NCBI GenBank assembly: GCA_965277405.1
Contig: OZ255726.1
Location: 544,001-608,000 of the forward strand
Origin: Gammaproteobacteria bacterium
GTDB lineage: Bacteria; Pseudomonadota; Gammaproteobacteria; G965277405
DNA: 64,000 nt
Reading direction: 5' to 3'
Shown: positions 1-6,709 of the stretch, one piece after another
Layout of the letters: each line of letters begins with the position of its first letter
Position numbering within the stretch: position 1 is the stretch's first letter
Notes under the pieces: model-generated
What the model was told of the DNA's origin: nothing
The model's database searches: none
What the model saw: only the letters and a program-made list of their open reading frames with translations
Made by a program: the position numbers and the translations under genes

Positions 1-189
1 GCAAGTACCGCTGCCGCAAACCCAAAGTATATGCAACACAACGACGAAAAAAAGCGGTACTAACGTCGTTGCAGCACTTGGCAATACCCACAACACCCAC
101 CAGTGTTAGCTGCGCACTGCGCCTTGCTATCCATCAGCCATCAGCGTTGTTGCTCCGTCTCGTCCATCATGGACTTAATCAGAGCTTCC
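1..189. mobile_element. IS5-family MITE, right part (cut by window edge)
   Basis: Ends in TIR ggacttaatcagagcttcc (171-189); the interior matches the copies at 25863, 34582, 38158 and 42547. Confidence 0.85.
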
Positions 190-319
190 ATAGGGGAAGA
201 GGGGAAATGTATTCTTTTTTTGTGTAATTTGCCGCAAAGATGATTTGTATAGTTTGAGTGAAAAACATATATTCTTAAAAGATATGATATTTAAGAATTT
301 TTTTATTTCGGGTGGGATA

Positions 320-3300
320 ATGAACAAACAGATATTATTTTTAGCGCTAGGACTATTAGCTATAGCAGGCTGTAACAATGGAAGTAGCATCGATCTGCTC
401 ACGCTGCGACCATGTGCACCGCACGCTATAGCAGGCTGTAACAATGGAAGTAGCAGCGATGAGTCTAGTACCAGTAACGAAGTTGTGGCAGGTCAAAATG
501 ATACTAAGATTAAAACAATCTATGCAACCGACTCTGCTTTTGCCGCGCTGACCAACGCTGGAGGCGTCGTTACTTGGGGGAGTACGTCTTGGGGCGGCGA
601 TAGTTCAGGCGTGCAGGATCAACTGACTGACGTTACAGCAATCTATGCGGCCCACTACGGGGCTTTTGCCGCGCTTAAAAACGATGGGACTGTCGTTACT
701 TGGGGGAGTACGTCTTCGGGCGGCGATAGTGCAGCGGTGCAGCAGCTACTGAATAACGTTACAGCAATCTATGCAACCGACTTTGCTTTTGCCGCGCTTA
801 AAAACGATGGGACTGTCGTTACTTGGGGGAGTACGTATTGGGGCGGCGATAGTTCAGGCGTGCAGCAGCTACTGAATAACGTTACAGCAATCTATGCAAA
901 CCGCTATGCTTTTGCCGCGCTTAAAAACGATGGGACTGTCGTTACTTGGGGTGAGGAGGATGACGGCGGCGATAGTGCAGCGGTGCAGCATCAACTGACT
1001 AACGTTACAGCAATCTATGCAGCCCGCACTGCTTTTGCCGCGCTTAAAAACGATGGGACTGTCGTTACTTGGGGTGAGGAGGATGACGGCGGCGATAGTG
1101 CAGCGGTGCAGCAGCTACTGACTAACGTTACAGCAATCTATGCAACCGACATTGCTTTTGCCGCGCTTAAAAACGATGGGACTGTCGTTACTTGGGGGGG
1201 TACGTATTGGGGCGGCGATAGTTCAGGCGTGCAGCAGCTACTGAATAACGTGACAGCAATCTATGCAAACCGCTATGCTTTTGCCGCGCTTAAAAACGAT
1301 GGGACTGTCGTTACTTGGGGTGAGGAGGATGACGGCGGCGATAGTGCAGCGGTGCAGCATCAACTGACTAACGTTACAGCAATCTATGCAGCCCGCACTG
1401 CTTTTGCCGCGCTTAAAAACGATGGGGGCGTCGTTACTTGGGGGAGTACGTCTAACGGCGGCGATAGTGCAGCGGTGCAGCAGCAACTGACTAACGTTAC
1501 AGCAATCTATGCAACCAAGTATGCTTTTGCCGCGCTTAAAAACGATGGGACTGTCGTTACTTGGGGTGAGGAGGATGACGGCGGCGATAGTGCAGGCGTG
1601 CAGCAGCAACTGACTGACGTTACTGCAATCTATGCAACCGATAGGGCTTTTGCCGCGCTGACCAACGCTGGGCGCGTCGTTACTTGGGGGAATGAGGATT
1701 ACGGCGGCGGTGAGTCTAGCTTGAATAGTGAAGCTGACGGTGGCTACCCACACATCATAACTCCCCCAGCTGCACCAAGCAATGTAAGCGCAGCAGCAGG
1801 TGATGGGGAAGGAGAAATAATTATTAGTTGGGATAGTGTCGCTGGTGTAGCTGTATATAATCTGTATTGGGCAACAACAGCTGGTGCTGGTAAAGATGGC
1901 AGCAAAATATCCGCAGTAGCCAGCCCATACCTGCATACAGAGCGTGCCAATACAGAGACATATTATTACACAATAACCGCAAACAATGACGACGGTGAGT
2001 CGAGCTCCAGTAACGAAACATCTGCATCACCAATCCCAGCTGCACCAACCAATGTAAGCGCAGCAGCAGGTGATGGGGAAGGAGAAATAATTATTAGTTG
2101 GGATAGTGTCGCTGGTGTAGCTGCATATAATCTGTATTGGGCAACAACAGCTGGTGCTGGTAAACTTGCCAGCAAAATATCCGCAGTAGCCAGCCCATAC
2201 CTGCATGCAGAGCTTGCCAATACAGAGACATATTATTACACAATAACCGCAAACAATGCCAGCGGTGAGTCTAGCTTGAGTAGCGAAGTTGCGGCAACAC
2301 TAATTGCATCCAATGACGGCGGTGAGTCTAGCTCCAGTAGCGAATATATGGCAGGTCAAAATGATTCTAAGATTAAAACAATCTATGCAACCGACTCTGC
2401 TTTTGCCGCGCTGACCAACGCTGGGGGCGTCGTTACTTGGGGTGATTATAGTTACGGCGGCGATAGTTCAGGCGTGCAGGATCAACTGACTGACGTTACA
2501 GCAATCTATGCGGCCCACTACGGGGCTTTTGCCGCGCTTAAAAACGATGGGACTGTCGTTACTTGGGGGAGTACGTCTTGGGGCGGCGATAGTGCAGCGG
2601 TGCAGCATCTACTGACTAACGTTACAGCAATCTATGCAACCTGGGAAGCTTTTGCCGCGCTTAAAAACGATGGGGGCGTCGTTACTTGGGGGAGTACGTC
2701 TAACGGCGGCGATAGTGCAGCGGTGCAGCATCTACTGAATAACGTTACAGCAATCTATGCAAACCGCTATGCTTTTGCCGCGCTTACAAACGATGGGGGC
2801 GTCGTTACTTGGGGGAGTACGTCTAACGGCGGCGATAGTGCAGCGGTGCAGCATCTACTGAATAACGTTACAGCAATCTATGCAACCAAGTATGCTTTTG
2901 CCGCGCTTAAAAACGATGGGACTGTCGTTACTTGGGGTGAGGAGGATGACGGCGGCGATAGTGCAGCGGTGCAGCAGCTACTGAATAACGTTACAGCAAT
3001 CTATGCAACCGATACTGCTTTTGCCGCGCTTACCAACGCTGCGCGCGTCGTTACTTGGGGTGATGGGTATGACGGCGGCGATAGTGCAGCGGTGCAGCAG
3101 CTACTGAATAACGTTACAGCAATCTATGCAACCGATAGGGCTTTTGCCGCGCTTAAAAACGATGGGACTGTCGTTACTTGGGGGAGTACGTCTAACGGCG
3201 GCGATAGTGCAGCGGTGCAGCATCTACTGAATAACGTTACAGCAATCTATGCAACCAAGTATGCTTTTGCCGCGCTTAAAAACGATGGGACTGTCGTTAC

Positions 3301-6300
3301 TTGGGGTGAGGAGGATGACGGCGGCGATAGTGCAGCGGTGCAGCAGCAACTGACTGACGTTACAGCAATCTATGCAGCCAAGTATGCTTTTGCCGCGCTT
3401 AAAAACGATGGGACTGTCGTTACTTGGGGTTCTGAGGATAACGGCGGCGATAGTGCAGGCGTGCAGCAGCAACTGACTGACGTTACTGCAATCTATGCAA
3501 CCGATAGGGCTTTTGCCGCGCTGACCAACGCTGGGCGCGTCGTTACTTGGGGGAATGAGGATTACGGCGGCGGTGAGTCTAGCTTGAATAGTGAAGCTGA
3601 CGGTGGCTACCCACACATCATAACTCCCCCAGCTGCACCAAGCAATGTAAGCGCAGCAGCAGGTGATGGGGAAGGAGAAATAATTATTAGTTGGGATAGT
3701 GTCGCTGGTGTAGCTGCATATAATCTGTATTGGGCAACAACAGCTGGTGCTGGTAAAGATGGCAGCAAAATATCCGCAGTAGCCAGCCCATACCTGCATA
3801 CAGAGCGTGTCAATACAGAGACATATTATTACACAATAACCGCAAACAATGACGACGGTGAGTCGAGCTCCAGTAACGAAACATCTGCATCACCAATCCC
3901 AGCTGCACCAACCAATGTAAGCGCAGCAGCAGGTGATGGGGAAGGAGAAATAATTATTAGTTGGGATAGTGTCGCTGGTGTAGCTGCATATAATCTGTAT
4001 TGGGCAACAACAGCTGGTGCTGGTAAAGATGGCAGCAAAATATCCGCAGTAGCCAGCCCATACCTGCATACAGAGCGTGCCAATACAGAGACATATTATT
4101 ACACAATAACCGCAAACAATGACGACGGTGAGTCGAGCTCCAGTAACGAAACATCTGCATCACCAATCCCAGCTGCACCAACCAATGTAAGCGCAGCAGC
4201 AGGTGATGGGAGAGGAGAAATAACCATTAGTTGGAATCAGGTAAATAATGCCGATTCATACAATCTATATTGGGCGACAAGCGCTGGATATGGTAAATCT
4301 GGCAGCAAAATATCCGCAGTAGCCAGCCCATACCTGCATACAGAGCGTGCCAATACAGAGACATATTATTACACAATAACCGCAAACAATGACGACGGTG
4401 AGTCGAGCTCCAGTAACGAAACATCTGCATCACCAATCCCAGCTGCACCAAGCAATGTAAGCGCAGCAGCAGGTGATGGGAGAGGAGAAATAACCATTAG
4501 TTGGAATCAGGTAAATAATGCCGATTCATACAATCTATATTGGGCGACAAGCGCTGGATATGGTAAATCTGGCAGCAAAATATCGCGAGTAACCAGCCCA
4601 TACACGCATACAGGGCGTTATGACGAATCATACTATTACACAATAACCGCAAACAATGACGACGGTGAGTCGAGCTCCAGTAACGAAACATCTGCATCAC
4701 CAATCCCAGCTGCACCAACCAATGTAAGCGCAGCAGCAGGTGATGGGGAAGGAGAAATAACCATTAGTTGGAATCAGGTAAATAATGCAGATTCATACAA
4801 TCTATATTGGGCGACAAGCGCTGGATATGGTAAATCTGGCAGCAAAATATCGCGAGTAACCAGCCCATACACGCATACAGATCGTTATAATGAATCCACA
4901 TACTATTACACAATAACCGCAAACAATGCCGGCGGTGAGTCTAGCTTGAGTAGCGAAGTTGCGGCAACAGCAACTGTATCCAATGACGGCGATAGTTCAG
5001 CGGTGCAGCAGCTATTGAATAACGTTACAGCAATCTATGCAACCGATAGGGCTTTTGCCGCGCTTACCAACGATGGGCGTGTCGTTACTTGGGGGAGTGA
5101 TAATGGCGGCGGCGATAGTTCAGCAGTGCAGCAGCAACTGACTAACGTTACAGCAATCTATTCAAACTACTTTGCTTTTGCAGCGCTTACCAACGCCAGG
5201 ACTGTCGTTACTTGGGGGAGTACGTCTAACGGCGGCGATAGTGCAGCGGTGCAGCAGCTACTGACTAACGTTACAGCAATCTATGCAAACCGCTATGCTT
5301 TTGCCGCGCTTAAAAACGATGGGGGCGTCGTTACTTGGGGGAGTACGTCTAACGGCGGCGATAGTTCAGGCGTGCAGGATCAACTGACTGACGTTACAGC
5401 AATCTATGCAACCGACTTTGCTTTTGCCGCGCTTAAAAACGATGGGACTGTCGTTACTTGGGGGGGTACGTATTGGGGCGGCGATAGTTCAGGCGTGCAG
5501 CAGCTACTGAATAACGTTAAAGAAATCTATACAAACGACCACGCTTTTGCCGCGCTGACCAACGCTGAGCGCGTCGTTACTTGGGGTGATGAGGATTGGG
5601 GCGGTGATAGTTCAGGCGTGCAGCAGCAACTGAATAACGTGACAGCAATCTATGCAGCCAAGTATGCTTTTGCCGCGCTTAAACACGATGGGACTGTCGT
5701 TACTTGGGGGAGTACGTCTAACGGCGGCGATAGTGCAGCGGTGCAGCAGCAACTGACTAACGTTACAGCAATCTATGCAACCGATTGGGCTTTTGCCGCG
5801 CTGACCAACGCTGGGGGCGTCGTTACTTGGGGGAGTGAGTATTCTGGCGGTGATAGTGCAGCGGTGCAGCATCTACTGAATAACGTTACAGCAATCTATG
5901 CAACCCGCTATGCTTTTGCCGCGCTGAAAAACGATGGGACTGTCGTTACTTGGGGGAGTGAGTATTCTGGCGGCAATAGTTCAGGCGTGCAGCAGCAACT
6001 GACTAACGTTACAGCAATTTATGCAACCTATAGGGCTTTTGCCGCGCTTACAAACGCTGGGGGCGTCGTTACTTGGGGGGACATTAGTTACGGCGGCGAT
6101 AGTTCAAGGGTGCAGCAGCAACTGACTAACGTTACAGCAATCTATGCAACCGAAAGGGCTTTTGCCGCGCTTACCAACGCTGGGGGCGTCGTTACTTGGG
6201 GTGATGAGGGTTACGGTGGTGGTGATCTAGTTTTCAGTAGCGAAGTTCCTTCCACACCAACTGTATCTAGTGAGTCGTATACGGCTACTGCGTCTTCGAC

Positions 6301-6709
6301 TGGCTGGTATAGCGACTATGTAACCTCGCCTGATCAAGCTATTGATTCTCGAGGCGACACTTTTTGGTGTGCTAATTCAATTCCAGCGTGGTATCAAGTT
6401 GAGTTGCCTTCCATTCAGCCAATTTCTCAAATAAGTTTATACATTTATTACCATAATGTTTCAGGAAATATACAGTTTTCTAGTGATGGCAACAGATGGC
6501 AAGAATTCACAAACTTTGATACAAATACAAACATAGATACAACTAATTACGCATATACAATATCTAACATAGATACAGTAGAATTAAAAACTTATAACCT
6601 AACAAATACTAGTGCGAAATTTGTCAGGATAAATTTTTTGACTACTGATGCCCCTGATTCTCATATCTATAAGGCATGCTTGACTGAAGTTGAGATAATA
6701 AGTCCATAA
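320..6709 (+). CDS. Giant surface lipoprotein: 3 x 10 RCC1/BLIP-II-like 41-aa repeats, 7 fibronectin type III domains, C-terminal discoidin/F5/8C-like domain
   Basis: ATG at 320 after gggtggga; signal peptide MNKQILFLALGLLAIAG-C (lipobox); repeat AFAALKNDGTVVTWG-xxxx-GGDS-VQ-L-NV-AIYA; FN3 motif PAAPxNVSA..ISW..YNLYW..YYYTITAxN; tip ATASS..AID..TFW..WYQVEL..AKFVRI..EVEI. Confidence 0.85.
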   Translation: MNKQILFLALGLLAIAGCNNGSSIDLLTLRPCAPHAIAGCNNGSSSDESSTSNEVVAGQNDTKIKTIYATDSAFAALTNAGGVVTWGSTSWGGDSSGVQDQLTDVTAIYAAHYGAFAALKNDGTVVTWGSTSSGGDSAAVQQLLNNVTAIYATDFAFAALKNDGTVVTWGSTYWGGDSSGVQQLLNNVTAIYANRYAFAALKNDGTVVTWGEEDDGGDSAAVQHQLTNVTAIYAARTAFAALKNDGTVVTWGEEDDGGDSAAVQQLLTNVTAIYATDIAFAALKNDGTVVTWGGTYWGGDSSGVQQLLNNVTAIYANRYAFAALKNDGTVVTWGEEDDGGDSAAVQHQLTNVTAIYAARTAFAALKNDGGVVTWGSTSNGGDSAAVQQQLTNVTAIYATKYAFAALKNDGTVVTWGEEDDGGDSAGVQQQLTDVTAIYATDRAFAALTNAGRVVTWGNEDYGGGESSLNSEADGGYPHIITPPAAPSNVSAAAGDGEGEIIISWDSVAGVAVYNLYWATTAGAGKDGSKISAVASPYLHTERANTETYYYTITANNDDGESSSSNETSASPIPAAPTNVSAAAGDGEGEIIISWDSVAGVAAYNLYWATTAGAGKLASKISAVASPYLHAELANTETYYYTITANNASGESSLSSEVAATLIASNDGGESSSSSEYMAGQNDSKIKTIYATDSAFAALTNAGGVVTWGDYSYGGDSSGVQDQLTDVTAIYAAHYGAFAALKNDGTVVTWGSTSWGGDSAAVQHLLTNVTAIYATWEAFAALKNDGGVVTWGSTSNGGDSAAVQHLLNNVTAIYANRYAFAALTNDGGVVTWGSTSNGGDSAAVQHLLNNVTAIYATKYAFAALKNDGTVVTWGEEDDGGDSAAVQQLLNNVTAIYATDTAFAALTNAARVVTWGDGYDGGDSAAVQQLLNNVTAIYATDRAFAALKNDGTVVTWGSTSNGGDSAAVQHLLNNVTAIYATKYAFAALKNDGTVVTWGEEDDGGDSAAVQQQLTDVTAIYAAKYAFAALKNDGTVVTWGSEDNGGDSAGVQQQLTDVTAIYATDRAFAALTNAGRVVTWGNEDYGGGESSLNSEADGGYPHIITPPAAPSNVSAAAGDGEGEIIISWDSVAGVAAYNLYWATTAGAGKDGSKISAVASPYLHTERVNTETYYYTITANNDDGESSSSNETSASPIPAAPTNVSAAAGDGEGEIIISWDSVAGVAAYNLYWATTAGAGKDGSKISAVASPYLHTERANTETYYYTITANNDDGESSSSNETSASPIPAAPTNVSAAAGDGRGEITISWNQVNNADSYNLYWATSAGYGKSGSKISAVASPYLHTERANTETYYYTITANNDDGESSSSNETSASPIPAAPSNVSAAAGDGRGEITISWNQVNNADSYNLYWATSAGYGKSGSKISRVTSPYTHTGRYDESYYYTITANNDDGESSSSNETSASPIPAAPTNVSAAAGDGEGEITISWNQVNNADSYNLYWATSAGYGKSGSKISRVTSPYTHTDRYNESTYYYTITANNAGGESSLSSEVAATATVSNDGDSSAVQQLLNNVTAIYATDRAFAALTNDGRVVTWGSDNGGGDSSAVQQQLTNVTAIYSNYFAFAALTNARTVVTWGSTSNGGDSAAVQQLLTNVTAIYANRYAFAALKNDGGVVTWGSTSNGGDSSGVQDQLTDVTAIYATDFAFAALKNDGTVVTWGGTYWGGDSSGVQQLLNNVKEIYTNDHAFAALTNAERVVTWGDEDWGGDSSGVQQQLNNVTAIYAAKYAFAALKHDGTVVTWGSTSNGGDSAAVQQQLTNVTAIYATDWAFAALTNAGGVVTWGSEYSGGDSAAVQHLLNNVTAIYATRYAFAALKNDGTVVTWGSEYSGGNSSGVQQQLTNVTAIYATYRAFAALTNAGGVVTWGDISYGGDSSRVQQQLTNVTAIYATERAFAALTNAGGVVTWGDEGYGGGDLVFSSEVPSTPTVSSESYTATASSTGWYSDYVTSPDQAIDSRGDTFWCANSIPAWYQVELPSIQPISQISLYIYYHNVSGNIQFSSDGNRWQEFTNFDTNTNIDTTNYAYTISNIDTVELKTYNLTNTSAKFVRINFLTTDAPDSHIYKACLTEVEIISP
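359..455 (+). repeat. Perfect 31-bp direct repeat (359-389, 425-455) flanking a unique 35-bp insert; in frame (66 bp)
   Basis: gctatagcaggctgtaacaatggaagtagca occurs twice, separated by tcgatctgctcacgctgcgaccatgtgcaccgcac. Confidence 0.95.
509..1712 (+). repeat. Coding tandem array 1: ten ~123-bp repeats
   Basis: Ten IYx..AFAAL..VVTWG units counted in the translation. Confidence 0.9.
2372..3575 (+). repeat. Coding tandem array 2: ten ~123-bp repeats
   Basis: Ten units counted; array offset 1863 bp from array 1. Confidence 0.9.
4988..6225 (+). repeat. Coding tandem array 3: ten ~123-bp repeats
   Basis: Ten units counted in the translation. Confidence 0.9.

Follow-up and report, generated by a model that had tools for sequence, protein, structure and literature searches.

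A bacterial lipoprotein with three ten-unit RCC1/BLIP-II-type arrays whose two variable loops are probably diversified by cassette exchange and selection

Background

The stretch of DNA analysed here (the window) comprises 64,000 nucleotides, positions 544,001 to 608,000 of the forward strand of contig OZ255726.1 in the gammaproteobacterial assembly GCA_965277405.1. Near its left end lies a gene for a lipoprotein of about 2,129 amino acids (window 320-6709, plus strand), which contains three arrays of RCC1/BLIP-II-type repeats. The units of these arrays are very similar in DNA except at two short places, referred to below as windows A and B. The locus raises the question of how a conserved repeat framework and two highly variable patches come to share the same short unit, and what the patches may be for. 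An earlier note on this DNA proposed an antibody-like modular binder, displayed on FN3 stalks, with a propeller face diversified by intragenic recombination or gene conversion. The reading favoured here is that the gene probably belongs to a family of surface binding proteins that undergoes concerted evolution, diversifying selection and short-patch exchange of loop cassettes.

Results

Two variable windows in a conserved repeat framework

Both a motif scan and a DNA profile find 30 units in the gene, ten in each of the three arrays, with a length of 41 codons in 28 units and 42 codons in the other two. Window A is defined as unit nucleotides 16-24 and window B as unit nucleotides 70-81, giving seven window codons together. 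Amino-acid entropy has its maxima at codons 6-8 (1.4, 2.3 and 2.6 bits) and at alignment columns 25-28 (1.9, 1.7, 1.9 and 2.4 bits); these columns are unit codons 24-27, column 10 being an insert present in two units. The concentration of variation in two windows, claimed in the earlier note, is evident in the nucleotide columns, with 19 of 21 polymorphic in the windows versus 36 of 102 outside them (Fisher p = 3.5e-6). For the 27 non-terminal units, nucleotide identity averages 0.53 within the windows and 0.91 elsewhere in the unit. The framework had been described as near-invariant; it is highly conserved (91%), but that wording is a mild overstatement, since there are further two- or three-state positions, namely the K/T-N-D/A-G-T/G/R turn, AA/SG, QQ/QL/HL and TN/NN. 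At the protein level, unit identity is 0.68-0.72 per array.

The gene has 17 distinct window A strings and 15 distinct window B strings, exactly those listed earlier, and each has a single DNA spelling (17/17 and 15/15). The same strings recur in different pairings, and the examples given before are true in the sequence: NRY is found with EEDD (units 4 and 7) or STSN (units 14 and 23), and TDR with NEDY (units 10 and 20), STSN (unit 17) or SDNG (unit 21). The window residues include Asp (19%), Ser (18%), Tyr (13%), Glu (12%), Arg (7%) and Trp (6%), with Tyr at 3% in the framework.

Recombination and cassette copying

The pairwise homoplasy index (PHI) statistic, at 0.760, lies below all of 5000 permutations, whose mean is 0.878 (standard deviation 0.035). 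Among 43 informative sites, 65% of the site pairs are incompatible. Because every cassette has only one DNA spelling, the recurring cassettes are copies and do not reflect convergence. Arrays 1 and 2 are colinear duplicates; their final unit and the following 256 nucleotides differ at 2 of 379 positions, and their interior partner units differ almost only at unit nucleotides 16-24, 41-54, 69-81 and 94-123. For 8 of the 14 A or B differences between positional partners, both versions are found elsewhere in the genome, and the other differences include neighbours one or two nucleotides apart, such as STSS and STSW. Short-patch copying and point mutation therefore both contribute. The site statistics, the single spellings, the comparison of arrays 1 and 2 and the versions shared elsewhere all agree with the recombination between cassettes that had been proposed.

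It is very unlikely that the mosaic is an assembly artefact of a repeat-rich region. Three public runs of one study hold the region, as short-read unitigs that are shattered inside the gene into pieces of about 100-300 nucleotides, and frameshifts at G runs in a paralogue (see below) hint at homopolymer errors, both of which would fit an artefact. Against this, the genome was assembled into one contig of 2.17 Mb, the reading frame runs unbroken for 6.4 kb, and the three arrays all have the canonical ten units with proper first and last units. Some difference-free unitigs also bridge neighbouring cassettes, for example 5473-5602 and 5575-5671, although the runs may be from the source sample. 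Unitig joints and other letters are as expected from paralogous units, and in one unitig a replaced 8-letter stretch of window B is flanked by framework. The unitigs show neither variation nor artefact, and such short pieces cannot show cassette order.

Non-synonymous excess in the windows

Pairwise Nei-Gojobori proportions of non-synonymous (pN) and synonymous (pS) differences were calculated for the 30 units after masking the tails of the three terminal units, which are diverged. The seven window codons have a pN of 0.52 and a pS of 0.23 (0.18-0.29), and the strict framework a pN of 0.015 and a pS of 0.095, which gives pN/pS ratios of 2.24 and 0.16, respectively. This was the dN/dS-type check suggested in the earlier note, and it confines the non-synonymous excess to the windows. 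Window pN is about five times framework pS in this gene, and the second locus described below has the same pN/pS pattern. A tree-free test scored cassette pairs one nucleotide apart as synonymous or not. Genome-wide, 4 of 41 such pairs are synonymous for window A versus 22% expected (p = 0.03), and 1 of 29 for window B versus 16% expected (p = 0.04). The same scoring of framework segments gives 15 of 24 and 13 of 15.

A pattern of this kind could also arise with no diversifying selection, if the repeats were recently amplified or homogenised and the loops were unconstrained, so that tolerance and drift shaped them. The same two loops are the most variable in 96 ten-unit arrays of other proteins, as tolerance would predict. 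In 20 arrays of at least nine units from other organisms, framework pS is 0.48-0.79 (saturated) and window pN is 0.48-0.68, and window pN exceeds framework pS in 6 and window pS in 4 of the 20. In the present gene, however, window pN is well above both values of pS, and neutral loops cannot outrun synonymous sites; the genome-wide depletion of synonymous changes among one-step cassette neighbours also argues for selection. Drift appears improbable as the whole explanation.

Predicted structure of an array

An AlphaFold2 model of array 3 was built from an alignment of 40 arrays, with a mean predicted local distance difference test score (pLDDT) of 92.1, uniform at 97-99 in the middle of the model, and a predicted template modelling score (pTM) of 0.87. 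In the model, all ten units fold into three strands and two short helices, one of a single turn and one of six residues. Window A coincides exactly with the loop of three residues that joins strand 1 to strand 2, and window B with the turn that immediately follows strand 3; the dimorphic NDGT/NAGG turn joins strands 2 and 3, i.e. at the opposite end of the blade. Because the three strands form an antiparallel meander, the topology would put A and B together at one end of each blade, opposite the NDGT turn; this is the outcome that the earlier note had expected of a structure prediction. The leading 45-nucleotide partial unit of array 3 gives a helix before blade 1, and the final unit has none, so that there are ten helices and ten meanders.

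The repeat type proposed earlier, RCC1/BLIP-II, is confirmed both by Pfam and by structure. The arrays match WD40_RLD (PF25390) at 4e-102 with 342.6 bits (cut-off 150) and RCC1_2 (PF13540) at 4.5e-79 with 258.9 bits (cut-off 22). The top structural matches are BLIP-II, UVR8, HERC2 and RCC1, and BLIP-II is the best solved structure (Foldseek E = 1.1e-16, 31% identity, template modelling (TM) score 0.38/0.57, root-mean-square deviation (rmsd) 8.4; VIA Z = 16.2). A profile of the 40 arrays matches the RCC1-like domains of HERC2 (the best, at 1e-12), UVR8 and RCC1. A sequence search of the PDB with a single array gave nothing at E <= 0.001 and weak matches to RCC1-like domains up to E 10, and BLIP-II was never reached by sequence with either phmmer or a profile. 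Solved RCC1/BLIP-II members typically have seven blades and the arrays here have ten units each, which leaves the superfamily membership unaffected.

The structural matches point to one large ring per array. Homologous seven-bladed domains superpose over just 225-267 residues, with an rmsd of 6.1-7.7. Rings of nine and ten blades that are unrelated to the family align along the whole model: the nine-bladed eIF2A over 305 residues (model 29-426, rmsd 5.5), sortilin over 320 residues (model 14-414, rmsd 4.8) and SorLA over 334 residues (model 14-414, rmsd 5.2). The closest overall predicted structure is that of a Megaviridae protein, A0A5J6VLF8, annotated as a regulator of chromosome condensation repeat protein (BFVD model; E = 4e-38, TM score 0.74, rmsd 4.1 over 410 columns, 28% identity); it differs from the lipoprotein in being viral and a single module of 465 amino acids. 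A ten-bladed propeller of three-stranded BLIP-II-type blades was found neither in the PDB by Foldseek nor among 48,161 representative chains.

The earlier note had left open whether each array is a ten-bladed propeller or a pair of five-bladed ones. Two five-bladed propellers per array, or an open solenoid, seem quite unlikely from the model. A paralogue with 15 units would be compatible with multiples of five, but the rings that align over model residues 14-426 are the ten-bladed sortilin and SorLA and the nine-bladed eIF2A and eIF3b, and no five-bladed propeller is among the top 50 structural matches. The even pLDDT through the middle of the model also argues against a break there, as does the spacing between units 5 and 6, which is like every other spacing in 95 homologous arrays and includes no linker. 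The single large ring is thus the part of the proposal that stands, and we infer from the model that each array is one closed ring of ten blades. The roughly 70 variable residues per ring would then form one face, presumably the ligand-binding face.

Paralogues and genome context

The genome is a single contig of 2.17 Mb with 44.8% G+C and is 98.3% complete. The 40 nearest genomes that were compared are related at class level only, and one of them has a weak match. The search for paralogous cassettes suggested earlier found, within the genome itself, a second locus with some cassettes in identical DNA, and a fragment. The second locus lies about 0.94 Mb away (genome 1480104-1493675; L002:2104-15675) and holds a tandem series of five paralogues that share the signal peptide and FN3 modules of the window gene and have arrays of 10, 10+10, 17, about 11 and 15 units. 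Two of these paralogues are broken: one has a deletion in unit 1, and the other has G-run frameshifts that may be sequencing errors. At a third place (genome 787.4-790.4 kb, minus strand; L003:2400-5400) there is a degenerate member with two RCC1-like units in broken frames. It begins like a lipoprotein and further contains some 300 amino acids of unrelated sequence and an FN3 remnant; its flanks carry the same miniature inverted-repeat transposable element (MITE) and upstream block as the gene in the window.

Counted over all three loci, about seven paralogous genes contribute about 104 units. Framework identity is 0.84-0.92, alike within arrays, between arrays and between loci, and the units do not cluster by array. 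There are 71 distinct A cassettes and 80 distinct B cassettes genome-wide, and of those in the window gene 5 of 17 for A and 2 of 15 for B recur at the second locus with identical DNA.

The array of 17 units (L002:9000-11117) was also modelled with AlphaFold at moderate confidence, with a pLDDT of 75.2, a pTM of 0.68 and a dip in pLDDT at residues 287-290. Many structural matches to it start at residues 291-297, and the first part has no match of its own. These features of the model would fit an array of 7 + 10 blades, with one blade type closing rings of two sizes.

A block of about 430-500 nucleotides that includes the MITE precedes most genes of the family, with 85-91% identity for the last four genes of the second locus and 79% for the fragment gene. 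Unitig depth is very high over window positions 1-267, consistent with a high-copy MITE. The upstream MITE may be a source of promoter sequence for all members of the family or may interfere with their promoters. A promoter and terminator scan was uninformative, giving 6 promoter-like sites versus 11.8 expected and none upstream of the start.

The broken paralogues and the conserved upstream blocks bear on whether variation might be programmed and frequent, with broken or promoter-less paralogues acting as silent donors as in Borrelia vlsE and Neisseria pilE/pilS. Broken paralogues do exist, cassettes with identical DNA are common to two loci, duplicated arrays differ only in cassette-sized patches, and a conserved block lies ahead of each gene. 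On the other hand, all copies, including the broken ones, keep their own signal-peptide start and upstream block and so look like decaying genes, and the frameshifts at G runs are possibly long-read errors. Repetitive propellers disrupted by frameshifts are moreover common decay products, according to an excerpt of PMC9218822. Programmed variation has for these reasons a small chance of being correct. There is a comparably slight prospect that the roughly 104 blades constitute a genome-wide cassette pool that re-tiles binding faces at high frequency in populations, in which case conversion patches would be 10-15 nucleotides long and the decaying paralogues would be donors.

A diversity-generating retroelement that mutagenises the windows was considered because the variation is localised. 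The thirty targets per gene and the cassettes copied intact are unlike the pattern of such elements. No reverse transcriptase (PF00078) was found in the genome at its 98.3% completeness, the control search being positive in 3 of 14 known genomes. The absence of a reverse transcriptase from this search comes close to excluding the candidate, and its probability is negligible.

About 7-10 kb upstream of the window there is a gene for a 952-amino-acid WD40-repeat protein (L001:1315-4173; WD40, 1.3e-88), which adjoins remnants of IS1595-type and DUF772 transposases. This genome may have a second propeller family, of the WD40 type, under the same regime.

Features shared by the family and features of this gene

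Homologues of the array number 20,813 cluster representatives at E <= 0.001 and 3,082 at E <= 1e-30. A survey of run lengths in the best 150 homologues and the query (151 proteins) found 366 unit runs, 98 of which have ten units. Runs of at least seven units number 172; the ten-unit class (98) is the largest of these, followed by nine units (32), and 7 runs comprise 18-20 units. The remaining 194 of the 366 are no longer than six units and probably represent arrays whose diverged units escaped the profile. At least one ten-unit run is present in 83 of the 151 proteins, and a survey of named genomes found 12 ten-unit runs in 74 loci. Across the 96 arrays of ten units taken from other proteins, the most variable stretches coincide with windows A and B, with column entropies of 2.5 and 2.4 bits and of 2.3, 1.9, 2.3 and 2.4 bits; no other column exceeds 1.7.

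The count of ten had been treated as remarkable. Both this count and the two variable loops are properties of the module and occur across the family. Because synonymous sites are saturated in the relatives, the low framework pS (0.095) is the unusual feature here, and what appears distinctive of this genome is the DNA-level homogeneity of the framework across about 104 units.

Database names of the homologues are merely 'RCC1 domain-containing' or 'alpha-tubulin suppressor-like'. The source organisms are Vibrio, Microbulbifer, Aeromonas, cyanobacteria, Campylobacterota and, in many cases, Symbiodiniaceae, and the named genome loci include Psychromonas, Photobacterium, Colwellia, Shewanella, Sulfurimonas, Bdellovibrionota, Verrucomicrobiota and a Poseidoniaceae archaeon. 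In the Symbiodiniaceae dinoflagellates the module is massively represented and is fused to ubiquitin, kinase and other eukaryotic domains. The presence of the module in aquatic bacteria, dinoflagellates, an archaeon and giant viruses is suggestive of horizontal transfer among planktonic marine organisms. Relatives with several arrays bear lectin, Calx-beta, cadherin-like and bacterial Ig domains, a domain company that would fit an extracellular adhesin or receptor role. ESM Atlas clusters named 'putative lipoprotein' combine F5/8 type C with RCC1_2, which is a lead only.

Anatomy of the lipoprotein gene

The gene lies in a single, uninterrupted open frame (245..6709, plus strand) with the ATG at 320 as its likely start. 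The order of domains is array 1, two FN3 modules, array 2, five FN3 modules, array 3 and a tail of about 150 amino acids; coordinates are given in Table 1. The FN3 modules and the lipobox are both present, as the proposal of a lipoprotein with FN3 stalks had it. The N-terminus, MNKQILFLALGLLAIAGC, read from the translation, is a lipoprotein signal followed by a Ser/Asn-rich linker, and the paralogues share it. The putative lipobox, IAGC, was assigned by eye from the translation by its fit to the lipobox consensus. A direct repeat of 36 nucleotides duplicates the stretch that encodes it, and the mature protein would consequently bear a second AIAGC motif.

The seven FN3 modules are near-identical tandem repeats of two sequence types (SWDSVAGVAAYNLYWATTAGAGK and SWNQVNNADSYNLYWATSAGYGK) in mosaic order, which suggests that the recombination acting on the arrays may also act on the spacers. 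The complete tail after array 3 is encoded by 6257-6706, and its discoidin-like match is marginal, with a score of 28.7 bits against a cut-off of 27.8. No relative of this C-terminal domain was found in the metagenome contigs, the genome contigs or the long proteins of the protein collection. No NCBIfam model matches the lipoprotein.

Table 1. Positions of the features of the lipoprotein gene and its upstream region in the window
Feature	Position (nt)	Strand	Basis
Coding sequence of the lipoprotein	320..6709	+	Open frame from 245; translation
Signal peptide, lipobox IAGC at its end	320..373	+	Translation; paralogues with the same N-terminus
36-nt direct repeat duplicating the lipobox-coding stretch	359-394 and 425-460	+	97% identical, spacing 66
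Array 1, ten RCC1/BLIP-II-type units	512-1744	+	Motif scan and DNA profile
Two FN3 modules, approximate limits	1763-2314	+	Motif NVSAAAGDG at P0001 residues 513 and 603; Pfam fn3 and Ig_RIMBP2
Array 2, ten units	2375-3607	+	Motif scan and DNA profile; colinear with array 1, offset 1863 nt
Five tandem FN3 modules	3628-4957	+	Period 270 nt, 93% matches
Array 3, leading 45-nt partial unit (helix only, 4982-5026) and ten units (5027-6256)	4982-6256	+	Array used for the model
Discoidin-like match (F5/8 type C, NedA-like galactose-binding)	6338-6547	+	Pfam PF22633, E = 2.1e-6, marginal
MITE-like high-copy repeat, part of an upstream block of about 490 nt	1..267	.	217 BLASTN hits in the genome

Discussion

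A surface binder under concerted evolution and selection

The most probable explanation of the locus is a cell-surface lipoprotein that would string three binding modules on FN3 spacers and carry a sugar-binding-type domain at its C-terminus. The arrays may be held at ten units because closure of the ring needs ten blades. The 45-nucleotide stretches of near-identical DNA that flank each window would be the substrate of homologous recombination; unequal exchange and short-patch gene conversion would homogenise the framework to about 90% identity, and the same recombination would spread loop cassettes among blades and among genes. New cassettes would arise by point mutation, and selection for a changing or diverse binding face would retain the amino-acid-changing variants in both windows. 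The binding function and the role of gene conversion are what we infer from this pattern.

Several points weigh against this reading or limit it. The count of ten, described as exact in the earlier note, is true of the three arrays here and is not absolute, since a paralogue with an intact frame has 17 units and a frameshifted one has 15 (a further one has about 11). The placement of the windows on the same face follows from strand topology in the model, and the single ring from which solved rings align with it. Unit identity at the protein level in this gene is ordinary for the family (median 0.64 in the 96 arrays, with 0.75-0.82 in the most internally repetitive homologues). Restricted to this gene, the one-step test does not reach significance (0 of 7, p = 0.19; 0 of 3, p = 0.57), and the pN/pS values are uncorrected pairwise proportions computed on recombining repeats. 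Window pS also lies above framework pS, and some of the window diversity may be old variation spared homogenisation rather than the product of fast change.

Comparison with known systems

BLIP-II is a secreted binder whose interface lies on one face of the propeller and is rich in aromatic residues. The protein, from Streptomyces exfoliatus (PDB 1JTD and 3QHY), is like the arrays here in having a blade of about 40 residues and three strands, but it differs in having seven blades and in being a single small protein, not a multi-module lipoprotein. Its global superposition on the array 3 model is poor (rmsd 6.4-8.4, TM score 0.38 by query), as expected from unequal ring size. An excerpt of PMC6121496 describes the BLIP-II blade as three-stranded.

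The earlier note also drew analogies to transcription activator-like effector (TALE) repeats and variable lymphocyte receptors (VLRs). In TALE repeats and lamprey VLRs, a near-identical framework carries a few specificity residues per repeat and recombination produces new specificities. For TALE repeats the analogy is fair for this evolutionary pattern and for that alone, as they are alpha-solenoids that read DNA. VLRs differ in their somatic, cytidine-deaminase-linked assembly, of which there is no sign here. The proposal of a diversified binding face holds for the predicted structure, the face and the recombination. The antibody- or VLR-like combinatorial part of it is not supported, since there is no evidence of programmed or somatic assembly and germ-line concerted evolution with selection fits.

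The closest described parallel of the evolution of this gene appears to be the WD40 repeats of fungal NOD-like receptors (NLRs). In Podospora anserina, according to a portion of PMC4986451, the WD40 repeats of the NWD/HET-E family have high internal conservation and undergo concerted evolution within and between members, with four interaction-surface positions in each repeat under positive selection. The NWD/HET-E proteins resemble the window gene in their near-identical blades and in exchange within and between family members. They differ in being eukaryotic cytoplasmic NLRs with an NTPase domain and in their four-stranded WD40 blades, usually seven in number. Their repeat number is also polymorphic, whereas the count in the window gene is tied to ten, and the units here lie below the 85% protein identity used as a criterion for NWD/HET-E (0.68-0.72).

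Highly repetitive propellers of the RCC1/BLIPII group have been surveyed before. As excerpted, PMC9218822 (Pereira and Lupas 2022) ranks them third in size, with 10% of all highly repetitive propellers; most members are from bacteria and some from eukaryotes or viruses, and disrupted copies are described as frequent. Its section on this group, in the same excerpt, makes no mention of a ten-blade preference, two hypervariable loops or cassette exchange. The Vps10p domains of sortilin and SorLA have a ring of comparable size, but their blades are four-stranded with Asp boxes and unrelated in sequence, with Z values as low as 8.1-8.4. As excerpted, PMC3797127 stated in 2013 that no ten-bladed propeller other than sortilin was known. 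A literature search found no description of a ten-bladed RCC1/BLIP-II propeller.

Conclusions

The evolutionary principle seen at this locus is known and not new; the novelty is its occurrence on a lipoprotein with predicted ten-bladed BLIP-II-type propellers. This module is understudied yet very common, as the 3,082 representatives at 1e-30 indicate. The recent homogenisation of the framework in this genome makes loop change, exchange and selection readable in the DNA and marks the residues that probably form the binding face. If the genome were to act as a cassette pool, the system would be a combinatorial receptor or antigen repertoire on a ten-bladed propeller, acting within populations as well as over evolutionary time. 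The module may also be a natural scaffold for engineered binders. On the reading favoured here, the gene family would extend the strategy of the fungal NLRs, in which a conserved scaffold carries a hypervariable face under concerted evolution, to the surface lipoproteins of bacteria.

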